Source: a virus
Lineage: Duplodnaviria; Heunggongvirae; Uroviricota; Caudoviricetes
Virus record (IMG/VR): IMGVR_UViG_2698536395_000003
Direction: 5' to 3' (one strand)
DNA: 7,511 nucleotides
Of the stretch, positions 1 to 7,511 are shown piece after piece; within the stretch, counting starts at the first letter, position 1, and the number at the start of each line of letters is the position of its first letter. The notes under the pieces were generated by a model. That model was not told the DNA's origin. It made no database searches and saw only the letters and a list, made by a program, of their open reading frames with translations. The position numbers were made by a program, and so were the translations under genes.

Positions 1-66
1 AGGGGATTTTCCCTCGTTTTGAGGGATCTCCCTCATTTTAGGGGAACCTCCCTCGTTTTGAGGGAT
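1..66. repeat. Origin-of-replication iterons (lambda ori-type): three complete direct repeats of about 17 bp (10-26, 29-45, 49-65) plus a partial copy at 1-9
   Basis: Direct repeats tccctcgttttgaggga / tccctcattttagggga / tccctcgttttgaggga at 19-20 bp spacing, each an internal inverted repeat, located inside the O coding sequence. This matches the known lambda O-binding iteron architecture. Confidence 0.8.
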
Positions 67-414
67 GCACCATTCTGAGATGTTTTTATTTGGTCCAAAC
101 ATGCCGCCTTGCTGCTTGATAATATTCATTCTGACGAGTTCTAACTTGGCTTCATTGCACCGTTTGACAGGTAACTTTGTAATCTCGCTAAGTTGAGAAT
201 CGGTGATTCTGTCCATTGGTTTATTCCACCCATAGGTTTTACGCAGAATGGCAAGCAGCACTTTAAACTGTCGCTTGGTCAGATCTGCGCCTGAATAAGC
301 CTCAATCAGCATATTTGATAGTCTGGCGTAACCATCATCGAGATCTGCCACATTACGCTCCTGTTCGGCAAAGTTACCTCTGCCGAAGTTGAGTATTTTT
401 GCTGTATTTGTCAT
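1..414 (-). CDS. O: Replication initiator protein O (lambda-type), N-terminal portion; the CDS continues beyond the window start
   Basis: Minus-strand translation from the ATG at 414 reads MTNTAKILNFGRGNFAGQERNVADLDDGYARLSNMLLEAYSGADLTKRQFKVLLAILRKTYGWNKPMDRITDSQLSEITKLPVKRCNEAKLELVRMNIIKQQGGMFGPNKNISEWCIPQNEG..., which I recognise as lambda O. The frame is open to position 1, so the six-frame track does not list it. The coding sequence contains the ori iterons, as in lambda. Confidence 0.85.
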   Translation of the reverse strand, partial: MTNTAKILNFGRGNFAEQERNVADLDDGYARLSNMLIEAYSGADLTKRQFKVLLAILRKTYGWNKPMDRITDSQLSEITKLPVKRCNEAKLELVRMNIIKQQGGMFGPNKNISEWCIPQNEGGSPKMREIPQNEGKSP

Positions 415-423
415 AATGACTCC

Positions 424-501
424 TGTGGATTGATCCAGTAATTCCCTCAGAATTGCATATCAATTTGCTTAGAGTCCCCGGCGGCCACCGGGGATTTTTT
501 C
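424..501 (+). ncRNA. oop: oop-like antisense RNA, antisense to the 3' end of the cII-family gene; candidate promoter -35 ttgagt (389-394) and -10 cataat (412-417); intrinsic terminator hairpin 476-493 followed by a T-tract
   Basis: Plus-strand hairpin ccccgg-cggcca-ccgggg followed by attttttc lies inside the minus-strand cII coding region. A sigma70-like promoter with 17-bp spacer sits upstream at the O start. The position and organisation match lambda OOP RNA. Exact ends are inferred. Confidence 0.5.
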
Positions 502-743
502 TTTGTGATTTCATCAAGCGCATACTTAAAAGCCCTGCTAATCGGACTGATGTCTGATGCCATTCCGAAAGCACACAAGACCGAAGCAATAAATCTCCAG
601 TCCGTTCTGCTTATCTTCGATTCATGACAGCCAATCATCTTTGCCAGACCGCGCTGGGTAAGCGTTGACAGGTTGATGAGTAAATCTGTTTCTGCGCGAT
701 CAATTTCTCGCTGTGTTAGCTTGCTGTAACTTGCTTGTGCCAT
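447..743 (-). CDS. cII: cII-family transcriptional activator (lambda cII / P22 C1 homologue), 98 aa
   Basis: ORF with C-terminal tail ...KKKSPVAAGDSKQIDMQF resembling the lambda CII C-terminus (...KKRPAATERSEQIQMEF). It sits between cro and O. The oop terminator overlaps its 3' end and a TTGC-N6-TTGC box overlaps its 5' end. Confidence 0.8.
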   Translation of the reverse strand: MAQASYSKLTQREIDRAETDLLINLSTLTQRGLAKMIGCHESKISRTDWRFIASVLCAFGMASDISPISRAFKYALDEITKKKSPVAAGDSKQIDMQF

Positions 744-760
744 TTGTTAATTTTCCTATA
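715..760 (+). promoter_or_regulatory. PRE-like cII-dependent promoter with the CII box TTGC-N6-TTGC at 721-734, directed toward cro (antisense) and c2
   Basis: ttgctgtaacttgc at 721-734 on the plus strand is exactly TTGC-N6-TTGC. It overlaps the start of the cII-family gene as in lambda PRE. The -10 element is not confidently placed. Confidence 0.5.
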
Positions 761-799
761 TTGATATATAGCGGCACACCCAGTGGATTTGCCGCTGAT

Positions 800-846
800 G
801 TTTGCTCACCCGGTTAGAGGTGAAAGGCCAGAACTGTTAAAGAGCA
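800..846 (-). promoter_or_regulatory. nutR: boxA (834-846, minus-strand sequence tgctctttaacag) and a boxB hairpin (about 803-823) with loop CUAACC
   Basis: Minus-strand boxA-like gctctttaaca lies about 10 nt upstream of a hairpin uucaccu-CUAACC-gggugag. The same boxA core and identical loop occur at nutL. Located between cro and cII, as for nutR. Confidence 0.55.
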
Positions 847-852
847 ATTTAC

Positions 853-1038
853 TTATGCCGCTTGGCGGTAAGCACTTTCTTGATACTTCAGGGCGCCAGC
901 TGTAACGATTTCCAATCGATAGGCGTCTTTCTCTGGGATAACTTCTTTCCACTGAGAGACTGCTGCATCGCTAATGCCTAGTGCTTTAGCAACAGCACGC
1001 TGGGTTCCGAAGTGGTCAATAACATCTTTTTTGTACAT
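853..1038 (-). CDS. cro: Cro repressor, P22-type, 61 aa
   Basis: MYKKDVIDHFGTQRAVAKALGISDAAVSQWKEVIPEKDAYRLEIVTAGALKYQESAYRQAA matches my recollection of phage P22 Cro almost exactly. A GGAG ribosome-binding site precedes the start on the minus strand. Confidence 0.93.
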   Translation of the reverse strand: MYKKDVIDHFGTQRAVAKALGISDAAVSQWKEVIPEKDAYRLEIVTAGALKYQESAYRQAA

Positions 1039-1118
1039 AGACTCGCTCCGAAATTAAAGAACACTTAAATTATCCACCAAAGGAATCTTAAGTCAAGTTT
1101 ATTTAAGATGTCTTAACT
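1039..1118. promoter_or_regulatory. OR operator region with divergent PR and PRM: three 18-bp sites fitting the P22 c2 operator pattern ANTNAAGNNNNCTTNANT at about 1053-1070, 1076-1093 and 1101-1118; PR on the minus strand with -35 ttgact (1091-1096) and -10 ataatt (1068-1073)
   Basis: attaaagaacacttaaat, accaaaggaatcttaagt and atttaagatgtcttaact each carry the AAG-N4-CTT core. A minus-strand ttgact-17bp-ataatt promoter overlaps the first two sites upstream of cro. The PRM position is inferred and appears to give a leaderless or near-leaderless c2 mRNA. Confidence 0.65.
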
Positions 1119-1769
1119 ATGAATACACAACTGATGGGTGAGCGTATTCGCGCTCGCAGAAAAGAACTCAAGATTAGGCAGGCTGCCCTTGGCAAGATGG
1201 TTGGCGTGTCTAATGTTGCTATTTCCCAATGGGAGCGATCTGAAACTGAGCCCAATGGCGAAAACCTATTGGCCTTAGCCAAGGCTTTGCAGTGCTCCCC
1301 TGATTACCTGTTGAAAGGAGAGGATAGTCTTTCAAACATTGCCTATCACAGCAGGCATGATCCAAGAGGTTCGTATCCTCTAATTAGTTGGGTAAGCGCA
1401 GGATGTTGGATGGAAGCTGTAGAGCCATATCATAGGCGTGCAATAGATAACTGGTACGACACAACGGTAGATTGTTCTGAAGACTCTTTTTGGCTCGACG
1501 TTAAAGGTGATTCAATGACTGCCCCGGCAGGACTGAGTATTCCTGAAGGGATGATTATTCTCGTCGACCCAGAAGTCGAACCACGTAATGGAAAGCTGGT
1601 AGTCGCCAAACTTGAAGGAGAAAACGAGGCGACATTCAAAAAGTTAGTTATTGATGCCGGTAGAAAATTCCTGAAACCACTCAATCCACAATACCCAATG
1701 ATTGAAATCAATGGGAACTGTAAAATCATTGGCGTTGTCGTTGATGCCAAGCTAGCAAACCTTCCTTAA
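1119..1769 (+). CDS. c2: c2 repressor (P22-type CI-family immunity repressor with HTH N-domain and LexA/S24-like C-terminal autocleavage domain), 216 aa
   Basis: MNTQLMGERIRARRKELKIRQAALGKMVGVSNVAISQWERSETEPNGENLLALAKALQCSPDYLLKG... is recognised as P22 C2. The C-terminal domain carries the GDSM serine motif and the conserved lysine region typical of self-cleaving repressors. Confidence 0.95.
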   Translation: MNTQLMGERIRARRKELKIRQAALGKMVGVSNVAISQWERSETEPNGENLLALAKALQCSPDYLLKGEDSLSNIAYHSRHDPRGSYPLISWVSAGCWMEAVEPYHRRAIDNWYDTTVDCSEDSFWLDVKGDSMTAPAGLSIPEGMIILVDPEVEPRNGKLVVAKLEGENEATFKKLVIDAGRKFLKPLNPQYPMIEINGNCKIIGVVVDAKLANLP

Positions 1770-1791
1770 GGGGCTTTCGCCCCTTTTTTAT
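1768..1791 (+). terminator. Rho-independent terminator downstream of c2
   Basis: ggggc-tttc-gcccc hairpin followed immediately by ttttttatt, starting at the c2 stop codon. Confidence 0.6.
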
Positions 1792-1833
1792 TTCCCGTTA
1801 AAAATCAAAGACAAACTAAATTCGCGCCCATAA

Positions 1834-1895
1834 AATTAAGTTTTCTTCAAAAATGCACTTGACCAAAAAATTAAGAGGTCTTAATTTTAAGCCGT
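1834..1895 (+). promoter_or_regulatory. OL/PL: operator sites at 1834-1851 (aattaagttttcttcaaa) and 1869-1886 (aattaagaggtcttaatt); PL -35 ttgacc (1859-1864) and -10 taattt (1882-1887)
   Basis: Both 18-bp sites match the ANTNAAGNNNNCTTNANT pattern found at OR. The second is a near-perfect palindrome overlapping the spacer and -10 of a ttgacc-17bp-taattt promoter pointing toward N. Confidence 0.65.
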
Positions 1896-1932
1896 CAGCA
1901 GGAGGCTGGAAGCCAAACGGAACAGATTGGCA

Positions 1933-1973
1933 GGCTCTTTAACATCGACGAACTCTCAACCTAACCGTTGAGA
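1933..1973 (+). promoter_or_regulatory. nutL: boxA ggctctttaaca (1933-1944) and boxB hairpin tctcaac-CTAACC-gttgaga (1954-1973)
   Basis: BoxA-like element 9 nt upstream of a 7-bp-stem hairpin with a 6-nt loop, in the PL leader upstream of N. Same boxA core and same loop as the nutR candidate. Confidence 0.65.
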
Positions 1974-2083
1974 CCAGAACTTGAGTGGTTTTGGGGATGG
2001 CGCGAATTGCAGCTGCAAGACAGCGATCGAGAAGATAAGCACCTCGACGCGTCATGCGCCAAAGCCACTTAAAGGAGACCATC

Positions 2084-2389
2084 ATGGTAACCATTGTCTG
2101 GAAAGAATCCAAAGGTACGGCAAAAAGCCGCTACAAAGCTCGCAGAGCAGAACTTATTGCCGAGCGACGCAGTAATGAAGCACTGGCGCGAAAAATTGCG
2201 CTAAAGCTCTCTGGTTGCGTCAGAGCAGACAAAGCAGCATCACTAGGAAGCCTTTGCTGCAAGAAGAAAGAAGAAGTTGTTCGAAAAAATAGAAGTATTT
2301 ATTACAAGGATTCAAACCCATTAGGAAACAAAATACATGCAGTCCAAAAAATAAAATTGTACAGTAAACTACCGTACGGTGCTTATTGA
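2084..2389 (+). CDS. N: N transcription antitermination protein, phage-21-type arginine-rich motif
   Basis: From the ATG at 2084 (preceded by aaggag at 2071-2076) the product begins MVTIVWKESKGTAKSRYKARRAELIAERR...; GTAKSRYKARRAELIAERR is the phage 21 N arginine-rich boxB-binding motif. The track ORF 2054-2389 is the same frame from an upstream ATG without a ribosome-binding site. Confidence 0.85.
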   Translation: MVTIVWKESKGTAKSRYKARRAELIAERRSNEALARKIALKLSGCVRADKAASLGSLCCKKKEEVVRKNRSIYYKDSNPLGNKIHAVQKIKLYSKLPYGAY

Positions 2390-2391
2390 GT

Positions 2392-2730
2392 ATGCTTATG
2401 GTGAAAAAGACTATTTATGTTAATCCTGACCGCGGACAAAACAGAAAAGTATCTGATAGAGGTCTTACATCTCGAGACAGGAGGAGAATAGCGAGATGGG
2501 AAAAGAGGATAGCATATGCATTAAAAAACGGTGTAACACCTGGATTTAATGCTATAGATGACGGTCCTGAATATAAGATTAATGAAGACCCAATGGACAA
2601 AGTTGACAAAGCATTAGCAACACCATTTCCTCGCGATGTCGAAAAAATTGAAGATGAAAAATATGAGGATGTAATGCACAGAGTTGTTAATCACGCTCAC
2701 CAACGAAATCCAAATAAAAAATGGTCATAG
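2392..2730 (+). CDS. Hypothetical protein (about 112 aa) immediately downstream of and overlapping the N stop; arginine-rich basic N-terminal half and acidic C-terminal half; function unknown
   Basis: Open frame from TTG 2386 / ATG 2392 / ATG 2398 to the stop at 2728-2730, whose start region overlaps the N stop codon (2387-2389). Followed directly by an intrinsic terminator. Product MLMVKKTIYVNPDRGQNRKVSDRGLTSRDRRRIARWEKRIAYALKNG...EKIEDEKYEDVMHRVVNHAHQRNPNKKWS is not recognisable to me. The start codon is uncertain. Confidence 0.55.
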   Translation: MLMVKKTIYVNPDRGQNRKVSDRGLTSRDRRRIARWEKRIAYALKNGVTPGFNAIDDGPEYKINEDPMDKVDKALATPFPRDVEKIEDEKYEDVMHRVVNHAHQRNPNKKWS

Positions 2731-2753
2731 CCCACTTCGGTGGGTTTTTTATT
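2731..2753 (+). terminator. Rho-independent terminator (tL1-like position)
   Basis: cccac-ttcg-gtggg hairpin followed by ttttttatt immediately after the stop codon at 2728-2730. Confidence 0.65.
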
Positions 2754-2863
2754 GGCTGAACTAACCTAATTTATTACAGCAAGCCACGCAGTGAAATGGG
2801 TGTGACTTGTGTTGGTCGCCAGAAAATGAAATTAGGCAGCAAACCACTTATTTGAGGTGAGAT

Positions 2864-3334
2864 ATGACAAAATCATGGAGCGTACCTTTTCCTGAATCAG
2901 AAACTGAACATGATGGAATGCCTGTTTTCTGGAGATTCCAGGCGACAGTTGAAGAAGATGGGATAAAAATATTCGCACTTCAATATATAGCTTTTCATCA
3001 GACAGAGCATTATGCATGGTTGGTTCCTGCGCATTGGATTGTTAATTTTAAACCAGCACCAAATCAGTGGTTACAGGAATGGAAACAAAGGAGAAATAGA
3101 TATGCAATTAAGAAAGTAGCAAAAAATGCAGAAAGATCTTTTGCATTCCCAACGAAGAAACTTGCTATTGAAAGTTTATTGCGCCGGAAGAAATACCATT
3201 TAATGAGAATAAAACAAGATTTGGCTGTTGTATCAACTCTTGTTGATGGGATGAAAAATATTGATACATCAACACCAGATATTGAATATAACTTTGGACA
3301 CAACCAAGAAACAGAAAATTGGGTATTTTATTAG
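2864..3334 (+). CDS. Hypothetical protein, 156 aa, in the AT-rich island; function unknown
   Basis: ORF with a good ribosome-binding site (gaggtga 6-8 nt upstream of ATG 2864) and a long open frame in AT-rich DNA. Product MTKSWSVPFPESETEHDGMPVFWRFQ...KQRRNRYAIKKVAKNAER...LLRRKKYHLMRIKQ... has an aromatic-rich N-terminal part and basic central patches. No homologue recognised. Confidence 0.6.
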   Translation: MTKSWSVPFPESETEHDGMPVFWRFQATVEEDGIKIFALQYIAFHQTEHYAWLVPAHWIVNFKPAPNQWLQEWKQRRNRYAIKKVAKNAERSFAFPTKKLAIESLLRRKKYHLMRIKQDLAVVSTLVDGMKNIDTSTPDIEYNFGHNQETENWVFY

Positions 3335-3438
3335 TACGAGTAAGCACTGTGTATTCATTCCAACGAGTGAATACACGGAGCAATGTCGCTCGTAACTAAA
3401 CAGGAGCCGACTTGTTCTGATTATTGGAAATCTTCTTT

Positions 3439-3465
3439 GCCCTCTAATGTGAGGGCGATTTTTTT
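3439..3465 (+). terminator. Rho-independent terminator upstream of ea10
   Basis: gccctc-taatgt-gagggc hairpin followed by gatttttttc. Confidence 0.6.
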
Positions 3466-3483
3466 CTGTGAGGATATGAACAG

Positions 3484-3852
3484 ATGTCAAACATCAAAAA
3501 ATACATCATTGATTACGACTGGAAAACATCAATAGAAATTGAAATCGACCATGACTTAATGACAGAGGAAAAACTTCACCAGATTAATAATTTCTGGTCA
3601 GACTCTGAATACCGACTCAATAAACACGGCTCTGTATTAAATGCTGTATTAATCATGCTGGCGCAACATGCTCTGCTTATAGCAATTTCAAGCGACTTAA
3701 ATGCATATGGTGTTGTGTGTGAGTTCGACTGGAATGATGGAAATGGTCAGGAAGGATGGCCTCCAATGGATGGTAGCGAAGGAATAAGAATTACCGATAT
3801 CGATACATCAGGAATATTTGATCCAGATGATATGACTATCAAAGCCGCCTGA
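3484..3852 (+). CDS. ea10: Ea10-like early protein (lambda ea10 homologue), 122 aa
   Basis: 122-aa ORF with ribosome-binding site gagga upstream, ending 72 nt before cIII. The size and the spacing to cIII match my recollection of lambda ea10. Product MSNIKKYIIDYDWKTSIEIEIDHDLMTEEKLHQINNFWSDSEYRLNKHG.... The identification is from memory and should be confirmed by alignment. Confidence 0.7.
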   Translation: MSNIKKYIIDYDWKTSIEIEIDHDLMTEEKLHQINNFWSDSEYRLNKHGSVLNAVLIMLAQHALLIAISSDLNAYGVVCEFDWNDGNGQEGWPPMDGSEGIRITDIDTSGIFDPDDMTIKAA

Positions 3853-3924
3853 GCGCGGCGTTACCGCATACCAATTACGCTTCACTCGAGGCGTTTTTCG
3901 TTATGTATAAATAAGGAGCACACC

Positions 3925-4089
3925 ATGCAATATGCCATTGCAGGGTGGCCTGTTGCTGGCTGCCCTTCCGAATCTTTACTTGAACGAATTACCCGTAAAT
4001 TACGTGACGGATGGAAACGCCTTATCGACATACTTAATCAGCCAGGAGTCCCGAAAAATGGATCAAACAATTATGGCTATCCAGACTAA
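3925..4089 (+). CDS. cIII: CIII protein (protects CII from FtsH/HflB), 54 aa
   Basis: ATG at 3925 preceded by aaggag; translation [54 protein letters not shown] matches lambda CIII. It is absent from the ORF track because it is shorter than 60 aa. Confidence 0.9.
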   Translation: MQYAIAGWPVAGCPSESLLERITRKLRDGWKRLIDILNQPGVPKNGSNNYGYPD

Positions 4090-4222
4090 ATTCACTATCG
4101 CCACTTTTATTGGCGATGAAAAGATGTTTCGTGAGGCCGTCGACGCTTATAAAAAATGGATATTAATACAGAAACTGAGATCAAGCAAAAGCATTCACTA
4201 CCCCCCTTTCCTGTTTTCCTAA
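4058..4222 (+). CDS. kil: Kil (FtsZ-inhibiting host-killing peptide), 54 aa here
   Basis: ATG at 4058 preceded by aggag; [54 protein letters not shown] matches lambda Kil and overlaps the 3' end of cIII as in lambda. The track ORF 3932-4222 is this frame extended upstream. Confidence 0.8.
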
Positions 4223-4276
4223 TCAGCCTGGCATTTCGCGGGCGATATTTTCACAGCCATTTTCAGGAGTTCAGCC

Positions 4277-4573
4277 ATGAACGCTTATTACATTCAGGAT
4301 CGTCTTGAGGCTCAGAGCTGGGCGCGTCACTACCAGCAGATCGCCCGTGAAGAGAAAGAGGCAGAACTGGCAGACGACATGGAAAAAGGCCTGCCCCAGC
4401 ACCTGTTTGAATCGCTATGCATCGATCATTTGCAACGCCACGGGGCCAGCAAAAAAGCCATTACCCGTGCGTTTGATGACGATGTTGAGTTTCAGGAACG
4501 CATGGCAGAACACATCCGGTACATGGTTGAAACCATTGCTCACCACCAGGTTGATATTGATTCAGAGGTATAA
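4277..4573 (+). CDS. gam: Gam (RecBCD inhibitor), short GamS form, 98 aa
   Basis: [60 protein letters not shown]...[10 protein letters not shown] is recognised as lambda Gam. Ribosome-binding site aggag 7 nt upstream. Confidence 0.95.
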
Positions 4574-4578
4574 AACGG

Positions 4579-5364
4579 ATGAGTACAGCACTCGCAACGC
4601 TGGCTGGGAAGCTGGCTGAACGTGTCGGCATGGATTCTGTCGACCCACAGGAACTGATCACCACTCTTCGCCAGACGGCATTTAAAGGTGATGCCAGCGA
4701 TGCGCAGTTCATCGCATTGCTGATCGTCGCCAACCAGTACGGCCTTAATCCGTGGACGAAAGAAATTTACGCCTTCCCTGATAAGCAGAACGGCATCGTT
4801 CCGGTGGTGGGCGTTGATGGCTGGTCCCGCATCATCAACGAAAACCAGCAGTTTGATGGCATGGACTTTGAGCAGGACAATGAATCCTGCACATGCCGGA
4901 TTTACCGCAAGGACCGTAATCATCCGATCTGCGTTACCGAGTGGATGGATGAATGCCGCCGCGAACCATTCAAAACCCGCGAAGGCAGAGAAATCACGGG
5001 GCCGTGGCAGTCGCATCCCAAACGGATGTTACGTCATAAAGCCATGATTCAGTGTGCCCGTCTCGCCTTCGGATTTGCTGGTATCTATGACAAGGATGAA
5101 GCCGAGCGCATTGTCGAAAATACCGCATACACTGCAGAACGTCAGCCGGAACGCGACATCACTCCGGTTAACGATGAAACCATGCAGGAAATTAACACTC
5201 TGCTGATCGCCCTGGATAAAACATGGGATGACGACTTATTGCCGCTCTGTTCCCAGATATTTCGCCGCGACATTCGTGCATCGTCAGAACTGACACAGGC
5301 CGAAGCAGTAAAAGCTCTTGGATTCCTGAAACAAAAAGCCACTGAACAGAAGGTGGCAGCATGA
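4579..5364 (+). CDS. bet: Bet (Red-beta single-strand annealing recombinase), 261 aa
   Basis: [85 protein letters not shown]... matches lambda Bet over its full length. Confidence 0.97.
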
Positions 5365-6038
5365 CACCGGACATTATCCTGCAGCGTACTGGGATCGACG
5401 TGAGAGCTGTCGAACAGGGAGATGATGCGTGGCACAAATTACGGCTCGGCGTCATCACAGCTTCAGAAATTCACAACGTAATAGCAAAACCCCGATCAGG
5501 AAAGAAGTGGCCTGACATGAAAATGTCCTACTTCCACACCCTGCTGGCTGAGGTTTGCACCGGTGTGGCTCCGGAAGTTAACGCTAAGGCTCTGGCCTGG
5601 GGAAAACAGTACGAGAACGACGCCAGAACCCTCTTTGAGTTCACTTCCGGCGTGAATGTTACTGAATCCCCGATCATCTATCGCGACGAAAGTATGCGCA
5701 CCGCCTGCTCTCCCGATGGTTTATGCAGTGACGGCAACGGCCTTGAGCTGAAATGCCCGTTTACCTCCCGGGATTTCATGAAGTTCCGGCTCGGTGGTTT
5801 CGAGGCCATAAAATCGGCTTACATGGCCCAGGTGCAGTACAGCATGTGGGTGACACGAAAAGATGCCTGGTACTTTGCCAACTATGACCCGCGCATGAAG
5901 CGTGAAGGCCTGCATTATGTCGTGATTGAGCGGAATGAAAAGTACATGGCGAGTTTTGACGAGATGGTGCCGGAGTTCATCGAAAAAATGGACGAGGCAC
6001 TGGCTGAAATTGGTTTTGTATATGGGGAGCAATGGTAA
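5361..6038 (+). CDS. exo: Exo (Red-alpha 5'-3' exonuclease), 225 aa
   Basis: [36 protein letters not shown]... matches lambda exonuclease. Its start overlaps the bet stop (ATGA). Confidence 0.97.
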
Positions 6039-6220
6039 TGAAGCATCCTCACGATAATATCCGGGTAGGCACGATCACTTTCGTCTACTCCGTTACAAAG
6101 CGAGGCTGGGTATTTCCCGGCCTTTCTGTTATCCGAAATCCACTGAAAGCACAGCGGCTGGCTGAAGAGATAAATAATAAACGAGGGGCTGTATGCACAA
6201 AGCATCTCCTGTTGAATTAA
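6038..6220 (+). CDS. Small early-left protein, lambda orf60a-like, 60 aa
   Basis: ATG at 6038 with ribosome-binding site ggggag 8 nt upstream, overlapping the exo stop. The track ORF starts at 6032 but that ATG has no usable spacing to a ribosome-binding site. Position and size correspond to lambda orf60a. Confidence 0.7.
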   Translation: MKHPHDNIRVGTITFVYSVTKRGWVFPGLSVIRNPLKAQRLAEEINNKRGAVCTKHLLLN

Positions 6221-6384
6221 GAACGAGTATCGGGATGGCACATAGCCTCGCTCAAATTGGAGTCAGGTTTGTGCCAATACCAGTAGAAACAGACGAAGAA
6301 TTTCATACGTTAGCCACATCCCTTTCACAAAAGCTGGAAATGATGGCGGCGAAAGCAGAAGCAAACGAGAGAGACCCGGCATGA
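6193..6384 (+). CDS. Small early-left protein, lambda orf63-like, 63 aa
   Basis: 63-aa ORF overlapping the previous gene by 28 nt, matching the lambda orf60a/orf63 arrangement as I recall it. Confidence 0.7.
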   Translation: MHKASPVELRTSIGMAHSLAQIGVRFVPIPVETDEEFHTLATSLSQKLEMMAAKAEANERDPA

Positions 6385-6464
6385 CAACAACAGAATGCAT
6401 TTTTCTGGCAGCAGGCTTCATATTCTGTGTGCTTATGCTTGCCGACATGGGACTTGTTCAATGA
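6381..6464 (+). CDS. Candidate small hydrophobic peptide, 27 aa (MTTTECIFLAAGFIFCVLMLADMGLVQ)
   Basis: ATG 6381 overlaps the orf63 stop (ATGA) and its own stop overlaps the next ATG at 6461 (ATGA). A gagagag ribosome-binding-site-like motif lies 7 nt upstream. The product is a single predicted transmembrane-like helix. Below the track's length cut-off. Confidence 0.35.
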   Translation: MTTTECIFLAAGFIFCVLMLADMGLVQ

Positions 6465-6676
6465 CACCTCAGCAGGAAAACGCCCTTCGCAGCATTGCCC
6501 GTCAGGCTAATTCTGAAATCAAAAAAGCCAGACAGCAGTTTCCGGATAAAAACGTCGATGACATTTGCCGTAGCGTACTGAAGAAGCACCGCGAAACGGT
6601 AACGCTAATGGGATTCACACCGACTCATTTAAGTCTGGCGATCGGCATGTTAAACGGCGTCTTTAAGGAGCGATGA
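6461..6676 (+). CDS. Small early-left protein (lambda orf61-region homologue), 71 aa from ATG 6461; alternative 93-aa form from ATG 6395
   Basis: Open frame 6395-6676. The start choice is uncertain: the ATG at 6461 is translationally coupled to the upstream small ORF, while 6395 gives the longest ORF but lacks a ribosome-binding site. Confidence 0.55.
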   Translation: MTPQQENALRSIARQANSEIKKARQQFPDKNVDDICRSVLKKHRETVTLMGFTPTHLSLAIGMLNGVFKER

Positions 6677-6695
6677 ACATGAAAAGCAAAATCAT

Positions 6696-6722
6696 CAGGG
6701 AGCTACAGGCTCCTTTTTTATT
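6696..6722 (+). terminator. Rho-independent terminator between the orf61-like and TraR-like genes
   Basis: ggagc-tacag-gctcc hairpin followed by ttttttattgtt. Confidence 0.55.
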
Positions 6723-6774
6723 GTTCGCATTCACCCTCAAGCGTATTAACCAACAATTCAGGGATTAATGGAAG

Positions 6775-6996
6775 ATGGCAGACATCATTGATTCAGCATC
6801 AGAAATTGAAGAATTACAGCGCAACACAGCAATAAAAATGCACCGCCTGAACCACCAGGCTATATCTGCCACTCATTGTTGTGAGTGTGGCGATCCGATA
6901 GATGAACTAAGACGTCTGGCCGTTCAGGGTTGTCGGACTTGTGCAAGTTGCCAAGAGGATCTGGAGCTTATCAGTAAACAGAGAGGTTCGAAGTGA
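6775..6996 (+). CDS. TraR/DksA-family C4-type zinc-finger protein (lambda Orf73-like), 73 aa
   Basis: CxxC-N17-CxxC motif (CCECGDPIDELRRLAVQGCRTCASC) in a 73-aa protein, characteristic of TraR/DksA-like RNA polymerase secondary-channel binders. Ribosome-binding site ggaag upstream. Confidence 0.75.
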   Translation: MADIIDSASEIEELQRNTAIKMHRLNHQAISATHCCECGDPIDELRRLAVQGCRTCASCQEDLELISKQRGSK

Positions 6997-7301
6997 GCGA
7001 AATTAACTCTCAGGCACTGCGTGAAGCGGCAGAGCAGGCAATGCATGACGACTGGGGATTTGATGCGGACCTTTTCCATGAGCTGGTAACACCATCGATT
7101 GTGCTGGCACTGCTGGATGAACGGGAAAGAAACCAGCAATACATCAAACGCCGCGACCAGGAGAACGAGGAAATTGCGCTAACGGTAGGGAAGCTGCGTG
7201 TTGAGCTTGAGGAAGCAAAATCAAAACTCAACGAGCAGCGTGAGTATTACGAAGGTGTTATCTCGGATGGGAGTAAACGTATTGCTGAACTGGAGAAATG
7301 A
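6993..7301 (+). CDS. Hypothetical coiled-coil protein, probably the N-terminal part of an ea22-like gene truncated by the IS insertion; GTG start
   Basis: GTG 6993 overlaps the upstream stop (GTGA) with ribosome-binding site gagagg 6 nt upstream. The frame ends at a TGA (7299-7301) that coincides with the first bases of the IS-like left terminus. The heptad-rich C-terminal part (LTVGKLRVELEEAKSKLNEQREYYEG) suggests coiled coil. The ea22 assignment is positional inference only. Confidence 0.55.
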   Translation: MSEINSQALREAAEQAMHDDWGFDADLFHELVTPSIVLALLDERERNQQYIKRRDQENEEIALTVGKLRVELEEAKSKLNEQREYYEGVISDGSKRIAELEK

Positions 7302-7511
7302 GGTAGCCTGAGTTTAACGGACACTCATTCCTGAACTAGAAAGGCATCAGAAGGAGCTAATAATCAGCAGAAAAACCCAACGTTACTCTAAAGAGCTAAA
7401 AGCCGAAACTGTCAGAACGGTTCTTGAAAATAAACTTTCGATCAGTGAAGGCGCCTCCCGATTACCCCTTCTTGAAGGCACTTTAGGACAATGGGTTACC
7501 GCCGCCAGAAA
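7299..7511 (+). mobile_element. Left end of an IS3-family insertion sequence (IS600-like): terminal repeat starting TGAGGTAGCC... and the 5' part of transposase orfA; the element continues beyond the window end
   Basis: The sequence from 7299 begins with a TG...GGACAC-type IS3-family terminus. From 7363 the frame reads (I)SRKTQRYSKELKAETVRTVLENKLSISEGASRLPLLEGTLGQWVTAAR, which is the helix-turn-helix N-terminus typical of IS3-family OrfA and closely resembles what I recall of IS600 OrfA. Confidence 0.7.
7363..7511 (+). pseudogene. IS3-family transposase orfA, 5' partial; the expected start codon position reads ATC rather than ATG, so it is either a non-canonical start or an inactivated copy
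   Basis: Strong ribosome-binding site aaggag (7351-7356) 6 nt upstream of codon 7363-7365 (ATC). The frame has no ATG, GTG or TTG between the upstream stop and the conserved SRKTQRYSKE segment. The frame is open to the window end. Confidence 0.4.

Follow-up and report, generated by a model that had tools for sequence, protein, structure and literature searches.

IS600 is a long-known member of the IS3 family, and its insertion into an apparently dispensable gene of the PL operon is ordinary. IS600 residing in lacZ of STEC O121:H19 undergoes excision mediated by IEE (Nakamura et al. 2022, PMC9397093; Kusumoto et al. 2011; Calvo et al. 2023, PMC9943667). The IS-excision enhancer excises IS600, and IEE-dependent excision brings adjacent deletions of a few nucleotides upward. 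O26:H11 is among the IEE-carrying STEC/EPEC lineages, and iee lies on SpLE1-like elements (PMC9397093). The window analysed here is the whole 7,511-bp E. coli draft contig LODD01000226.1 (assembly GCA_001609855.1; locus L006), and its right-hand end lies 213 nt inside a multi-copy IS. Compared with IS600 (Shigella sonnei / E. coli, IS3 group, 1,264 bp), the left repeat is the same for the first 28 nt, and the Shine-Dalgarno sequence, the position of orfA 64 nt from the end, the HTH_Tnp_1 N-terminus of OrfA and the 3-bp target duplication are alike, whereas the deposited 213 nt read ATC in place of the ATG of orfA, and the frameshift site, the DDE OrfB and the right end are outside the window. 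The ATC is the only unusual feature of this copy, and it is most probably not real.

The prophage region in the window is the early-left part of a lambdoid prophage. A partial rep-O gene, cII and cro are on the minus strand, and the plus strand carries, in this order, a cI-like repressor, cIII, kil, gam, bet/RecT, exo/YqaJ, DUF1317, DUF1382, a TraR/DksA zinc-finger ORF and an Ead/Ea22 ORF. Positions 1-7298 were 100.0% identical to the O26:H11-type prophage in many complete genomes, e.g. NC_013361.1 3128727-3136024, and a synteny comparison gave the gene order of lambda, exo-orf60a-orf63-orf61-(TraR-like)-ea22. The left contig end (window 1-250) lies in the replication (O) gene, which is found at 2-4 places per O26-type genome, and was error-free; the repeated O gene probably explains the assembly break at this end. 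The WGS accession had no match in the literature.

The TraR/DksA-type C4 zinc-finger ORF (6775..6996, plus strand, 73 aa; Pfam zf-dskA_traR, E 1e-8) is named TraR/DksA family protein in O26 genomes, and its 3' end shares 4 nt with the start of ea22. The truncated ea22-like gene that follows (6993..7301, plus strand) has a GTG start, 102 native codons and a stop supplied by the IS, as judged from Pfam Ead_Ea22 and comparison with the intact allele; in the Pfam search, residues 2-101 of the 102-aa ORF matched Ead_Ea22 (PF13935) with an E of 4.2e-30. The gene resembles lambda ea22 in its GTG start, its place after the TraR-like ORF and its 96% DNA identity over the first 302 nt, but the C-terminal half of the intact O26 allele is mosaic and unlike that of lambda, and the window copy is without its C-terminal half. 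The intact allele encodes 201 aa from the same GTG (L002 2844-3449) and is present in more than 100 complete O26-type genomes. It reads ...GAG AAA AGC GAA GAG... and runs 99 codons beyond the truncation point, so that the truncated product is shorter by 99 aa at its C-terminus. At the insertion site the uninterrupted allele reads GAGAAAAGCGAAGAG, also given as GAGAAAAGCG. The IS lies precisely at the C-terminal edge of the Ead_Ea22 domain, which spans residues 2-101 whether the protein is truncated or intact; truncation therefore leaves the conserved domain complete and removes nothing but the variable C-terminal half.

Several other independent inactivating alleles of the ea22-like gene were seen among metagenome, Logan and NCBI contigs (L021-L028, P0064, P0066). 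They include a 4-bp deletion (GAGTATTACGAAGG to GAGTAGAAGG), a nonsense change (CGTGAG to CGTTAG), and length changes of -1, -2 and +1 in the run of AAAA where the IS inserted. Lysogens appear to be able to do without the gene. An 81-aa C-terminal ORF (P0053), tried as a route to the IS junctions, led to unrelated ea22 pseudogene alleles instead.

The earlier note, made from the letters of the window alone, had proposed that an IS3-family (IS600-like) element truncates the ea22-like gene located 3' of the TraR-like ORF, and this proposal holds, with IS600 from 7299 onward and the intact 201-aa allele found elsewhere. After GAGAAA, the window reads TGAGGTAGCCTGAGTTTAACGGACAC..., with the junction GAGAAA|TGAGG. 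In the IS600 alignments, the left part of the element occupies 7299..7511 (plus strand, 213 nt), in the same orientation as the PL operon, and is ended by the contig end. The left terminal inverted repeat TGAGGTAGCCTGAGTTTAACGGACACT (7299..7325, plus strand) is that of canonical IS600, according to both the alignment and the comparison of the left and right repeats (IRL and IRR). To place the boundary, three independent IS600 copies, in a DUF551 gene, in a TolA-like gene and on plasmid pO26_1, were put into a multiple alignment; they matched the window from exactly 7299 and diverged upstream. The same alignment bears out the further suggestion of the note that the ORF ends on the IS terminus, since the left inverted repeat of IS600 opens with the triplet TGA (7299-7301), which terminates the ea22-like ORF. 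Megablast had placed the start of IS600 farther upstream, at 7282-7284, and in the multiple alignment these extra bases proved to be a chance extension into A-rich flanks.

The copy in EH031 (L002 3584-4847) defines the element as 1,264 bp with TGAGG...CCTCA ends and a CCG duplication, inserted in the DUF551 gene. The left repeat of the window reads TGAGGT...CGGACACT, and the right repeat, ...AGTGTCCG...ACCTCA, was taken from the canonical L002 copy and the right junction in L029, outside the window. As such, the imperfect 5'-TG...CA-3' terminal inverted repeats that are a trait of the IS3 family are present, the left end in the window and the right end in L002 and L029. Direct reading gave the Shine-Dalgarno sequence AAGGAG of orfA (7351..7356, plus strand), which is kept in all IS600 copies, followed by an N-terminal OrfA fragment of 49 codons (7363..7511, plus strand) that matched HTH_Tnp_1 (PF01527) with an E of 1.1e-10 and 42 bits against a cut-off of 24.1. 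Canonical IS600 copies are annotated 'programmed frameshift', and the window, which reaches IS position 213, stops short of the frameshift site. IS600 occurs at about 18-20 places per O26 chromosome. Independent insertions were also seen in the same early region of the prophage: that of EH031 lies in the DUF551 gene just downstream of ea22, and EH2252 (NZ_AP027176.1 3151805-3160369) has an IS600 somewhere within a 7.3-kb stretch matching the window.

An exact look-up placed the 102-aa protein on 69 contigs. Seven other assemblies (L008-L014) have the same left junction, followed by 119-127 nt of 100% canonical IS600 with the ATG included, and their flanks equal the window except for Ns. For the right junction, the fusion ORFs predicted under two scenarios had no match in an exact-sequence look-up, private errors having altered the actual contig end. 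When the C-terminal half of Ea22 that the window lacks was used as the query of a homology search, it led to a fusion ORF (P0068) and through it to LOFM01000155.1 (L029), a contig of the sister 2016 assembly GCA_001606365.1. This contig begins with the right end of IS600, ...CAGTACACCTCA|AAA|AGCGAAGAGCAACTC, and has the junction CACCTCA|AAA|AGCGAAGAG. The left copy of the target-site duplication is the AAA at 7296..7298 (no strand assigned), defined from the left and right junctions and the uninterrupted allele. The 3-bp duplication that the earlier note had proposed looking for at the right end was thus found in the sister contig, and the AAA duplication is a composite of the window (left) and L029 (right), that is, of two sister assemblies. 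Since the right junction reads intact-allele sequence, IS600 entered the intact allele, duplicating AAA.

The insertion is real: its site, the identity of the IS and the composite target duplication are all seen directly. In the mechanism that we propose, a standard IS600 (1,264 bp) would have jumped into an accessory gene, the ea22-like one, of a lambdoid prophage of the O26:H11 type, landing after codon 102 along the direction of PL transcription and duplicating the target AAA, and the TGA of its left repeat would end the ORF to give a 102-aa protein with the whole Ead/Ea22 domain. Past the insertion, L029 carries DUF551, DUF4222, a hypothetical gene, an excisionase (72 aa) and an integrase (356 aa), all open, and beyond the integrase are host genes, also open, as far as gyrA. 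The suspicion that integration or excision functions further along might be defective is therefore not borne out, the excisionase and integrase being intact in the sister assembly; the insertion may still have a polar effect on PL-driven expression of xis. The insertion itself has little biological weight, as IS600 in accessory genes of O26-type prophages is routine and the sister isolate has kept both xis and int intact.

Two contigs encode the same 102-aa ORF in an IS-free form. In L005 (6720-6735) and L007 (2816-2831), corresponding to window 7293-7301, the sequence is GAGAAA-T-GAAGAG, compared with GAGAAA-AGC-GAAGAG in the intact allele, so that the 102-aa ORF ends in TGA and is overlapped by a 109-aa ORF. 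The earlier note had named full-length homologues ending at the same position without an IS as the observation that would speak against truncation. Such ORFs do literally exist in L005 and L007, but the two alleles look like excision scars and not like an ancestral end of the gene. Had the ea22-like ORF naturally ended at this TGA, with the IS landing beside a pre-existing stop, the identical IS-free ORFs would be readily accounted for; however, the right junction in L029, CCTCA|AAA|AGCGAAGAG, is that of the intact allele and not TGAAGAG, the intact 201-aa allele is the form in more than 100 complete genomes, and imprecise excision of the IS explains the L005-type allele better. A natural end at this position is accordingly very improbable.

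When the alleles are written side by side, the IS allele is GAGAAA|TGAGG...CCTCA|AAAAGCGAAGAG, and the L005-type allele is obtained from it when IS bases 2-1264 are removed together with the AAAAGC next to them, with a 2-nt GA microhomology at the joint, written GAGAAATGAAGAG. In L005 and L007, AGC is replaced by T, the first base of IS600, and the second AAA and the AGC are lost. These alleles show the features of excision scars: related strains carry an IS3-family IS at the site, few nucleotides are lost, and the joint has microhomology. From the sequences compared, the best explanation of L005 and L007 seems to be that they are imprecise, IEE/MMEJ-type excision scars of ea22::IS600. The case is like the excision from lacZ::IS600 of O121:H19 in that the IS and the IEE-carrying lineage group are the same, and in that the AGC-to-T allele has lost the IS with a few adjacent nucleotides at a microhomology joint. 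In contrast with lacZ, the target here is a prophage accessory gene, and the scar is frameshifted and restores no function. The dependence of L005 and L007 on IEE is putative and taken from the lineage literature. A natural series of alleles is thereby seen at one site, intact, IS600-interrupted and carrying a frameshifting scar, and it fits microhomology-mediated IS excision of the IEE type in the wild.

In the deposited sequence, ATC stands in place of the ATG of orfA (7363..7365, plus strand; G>C at 7365 by comparison with other IS600 copies), 6 nt after AAGGAG (7351-7356), as the earlier note had read it. The comparison of these three positions with other genomic copies, which it had also suggested, gave ATG in all other IS600 copies examined. 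No canonical in-frame start (ATG, GTG or TTG) was found from the TAA at 7315, upstream of the ATC, to the end of the contig. The deposited overhang has 94.4-94.8% identity to canonical IS600, with 12 private substitutions at 7327, 7336, 7342, 7365, 7396, 7398, 7408, 7432, 7455, 7465, 7467 and 7472. ISfinder by convention treats elements as isoforms when they are at least 95% identical at the DNA level; we attribute the shortfall of the overhang in identity to IS600 to read error. Substitutions amounted to 12/213 in the terminal overhang versus 0/7298 in the flank (Fisher p = 2e-19), and transitions and transversions were 6:6. In the coding part, six changes are non-synonymous (start loss, F12L, A16T, Q24K, S35P and P37L) versus three synonymous, and the pattern looks unselected. 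The OrfA fragment thus differs from IS600 OrfA by five amino-acid changes and the start change, with the HTH affected.

Full-length matches to the overhang above 95% identity were absent among 5,426 complete E. coli genomes, and its best match among PLSDB plasmids was 94.9%. A 30-mer covering the ATC and two other variant-specific 24-25-mers gave no matches in GTDB representatives, IMG/VR and JGI metagenomes, and a scan of IMG/VR for the junction pattern gave none either. Among about 15 billion proteins, the OrfA fragment (WP_074014293.1) occurred once. Divergent IS600-like copies were without the variant bases, and ATG was found in all of them. Mixing of a related IS paralogue into the consensus was considered as a source of the changes and dropped, as the IS600-like copies on S. 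dysenteriae and E. coli plasmids do not have the variant bases. By these sequence comparisons, the 12 substitutions appear to be private to the window contig.

It was conceivable that the ATC marks an IS600-like isoform in which ATC-initiated OrfA serves as built-in down-regulation of the transposase and has been missed by gene callers. In E. coli, low-level initiation can take place at near-cognate AUN codons, the Shine-Dalgarno sequence is strong and correctly spaced with no other in-frame canonical start, and PGAP took the ATC as a start (WP_074014293.1). However, the DNA-level searches are independent of gene calling and revealed no second copy with the ATC or its companion variants, a recently transposed element is expected to have siblings, and the same junction has ATG in other strains. 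We give such an isoform hardly any credence. The methionine with which WP_074014293.1 begins corresponds to 7363-7365, and hence the NCBI (PGAP) annotation took the ATC as an initiation codon.

A second possibility is that the substitutions are real and that this is a privately degenerated, inactivated IS600 with the orfA start lost and the HTH changed, for instance by gene conversion from an unsampled decayed relic. The deposited sequence does have the changes, the 6:3 ratio of non-synonymous to synonymous changes is as compatible with neutral decay as with error, and divergent IS600-like copies (about 90% identity) exist on Shigella dysenteriae plasmids. Against this, 0/7,298 changes in the flank are set against 12/213 in the overhang, the identical insertion is canonical in seven other assemblies, and no donor with these bases was present in any collection searched; the reading requires an unsampled donor or local hypermutation. 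Furthermore, a 5%-divergent copy would be unique sequence that the assembler is expected to cross, yet the contig ended at 213 nt, and overhangs of IS600 bearing errors and adapter were shown in the same assembly. A real degenerate copy is, as such, unlikely, though less so than the isoform.

The quality of contig ends was judged from another contig of the same assembly, LODD01000112.1 (L030), which was reached through the neighbouring RefSeq accession WP_074014269.1. Positions 1437-1657 of this contig begin as an IS600 left end, whose 191 nt contain 5 private substitutions, and finish with 30 nt of Nextera adapter. The adapter reads CTGTAGCTTATACACATCTGACGCTGCCGA, while the true Nextera sequence is CTGTCTCTTATACACATCTGACGCTGCCGA, which amounts to 2 errors. 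As the correct adapter sequence is known, its errors show that these overhangs consist of raw reads, untrimmed and with several per cent error, and the end of LODD01000112.1 provides an internal measure of about 3-7% error in IS600 overhangs. In the case of the sister assembly, the IS600 right-end overhang of L029 (1-190) has 7 private substitutions (96.3%) beside 6,297 error-free flank bases, and its best match in the 5,426 genomes was 96.8%.

Based on the canonical copies at the same junction, the private nature of the variants and the error- and adapter-bearing IS600 overhang in the same assembly, the reading that we hold with considerable confidence is that a standard IS600 sits in ea22, that the assembly broke in the multi-copy IS, and that ATG to ATC is a read or assembly error, as we infer for the G>C at 7365. 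Because of the many identical IS600 copies, short-read assembly would have broken inside the element, and the last 213 nt would be an unpolished overhang built on one or a few Nextera reads of low quality that had not been trimmed. Its 12 substitutions, including the one in the start codon, would then be read or assembly errors and not properties of the element. The alternatives put forward in the earlier note, an inactivated copy or a non-canonical initiator, are not supported, given the ATG in seven same-junction assemblies, the private variants and the adapter-bearing overhang.

Four observations do not fit an artefact easily. The substitutions are evenly spread, with the last 39 nt clean and no rise toward the contig end; the opposite contig end, also a low-copy repeat, is error-free; the LODD and LOFM contigs are each listed in '2 samples', which, if these were independent runs, would make the variants reproducible; and the T>C at IS position 169 recurs in a second LODD contig. 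A simple stop of a de Bruijn assembler at the last unique k-mer (k about 40) was tried as an account of the contig end and fits the window, but fails for L029, where a variant lies 6 nt from the contig end. The clustering of substitutions at both IS ends (12/213 in LODD at the left, 7/190 in LOFM at the right) could in principle be real and the product of error-prone re-synthesis of the termini, for which the primase-polymerase domain of the IS-excision enhancer, being of low fidelity, might for instance be responsible when excision aborts or in the course of copy-out. In that case, the host factor that excises IS copies would also mutate and inactivate them, here at the orfA start; the chance of this is very slight, and we keep to read or assembly error as the source of the changes.

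The lesson is one of data quality, in that draft contig ends in multi-copy IS elements are, in some public assemblies, unpolished reads. Where such an end appears to have lost a start codon, to be a private 'isoform' or to encode a singleton 'partial transposase', this is not to be taken as biology. As WP_074014293.1 came from this overhang, homology-guided annotation can carry a contig-end error into the protein database.

Some minor features of these ends were also seen. The T>C at IS600 position 169 (window 7467) is common to the window and LODD01000112.1, and plasmid p542099 has extra C's there (TATCCCC); IS600 copies may truly vary at this base, or the sequencing may err systematically in this context. 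A partial 'transposase', WP_074014269.1 (...GPVAYTHLTLP), was annotated from the adapter-bearing end of LODD01000112.1. In RefSeq, the 135-aa 'hypothetical protein' P0068 from L029 is a chimera in which the IS end is read into the remainder of ea22.
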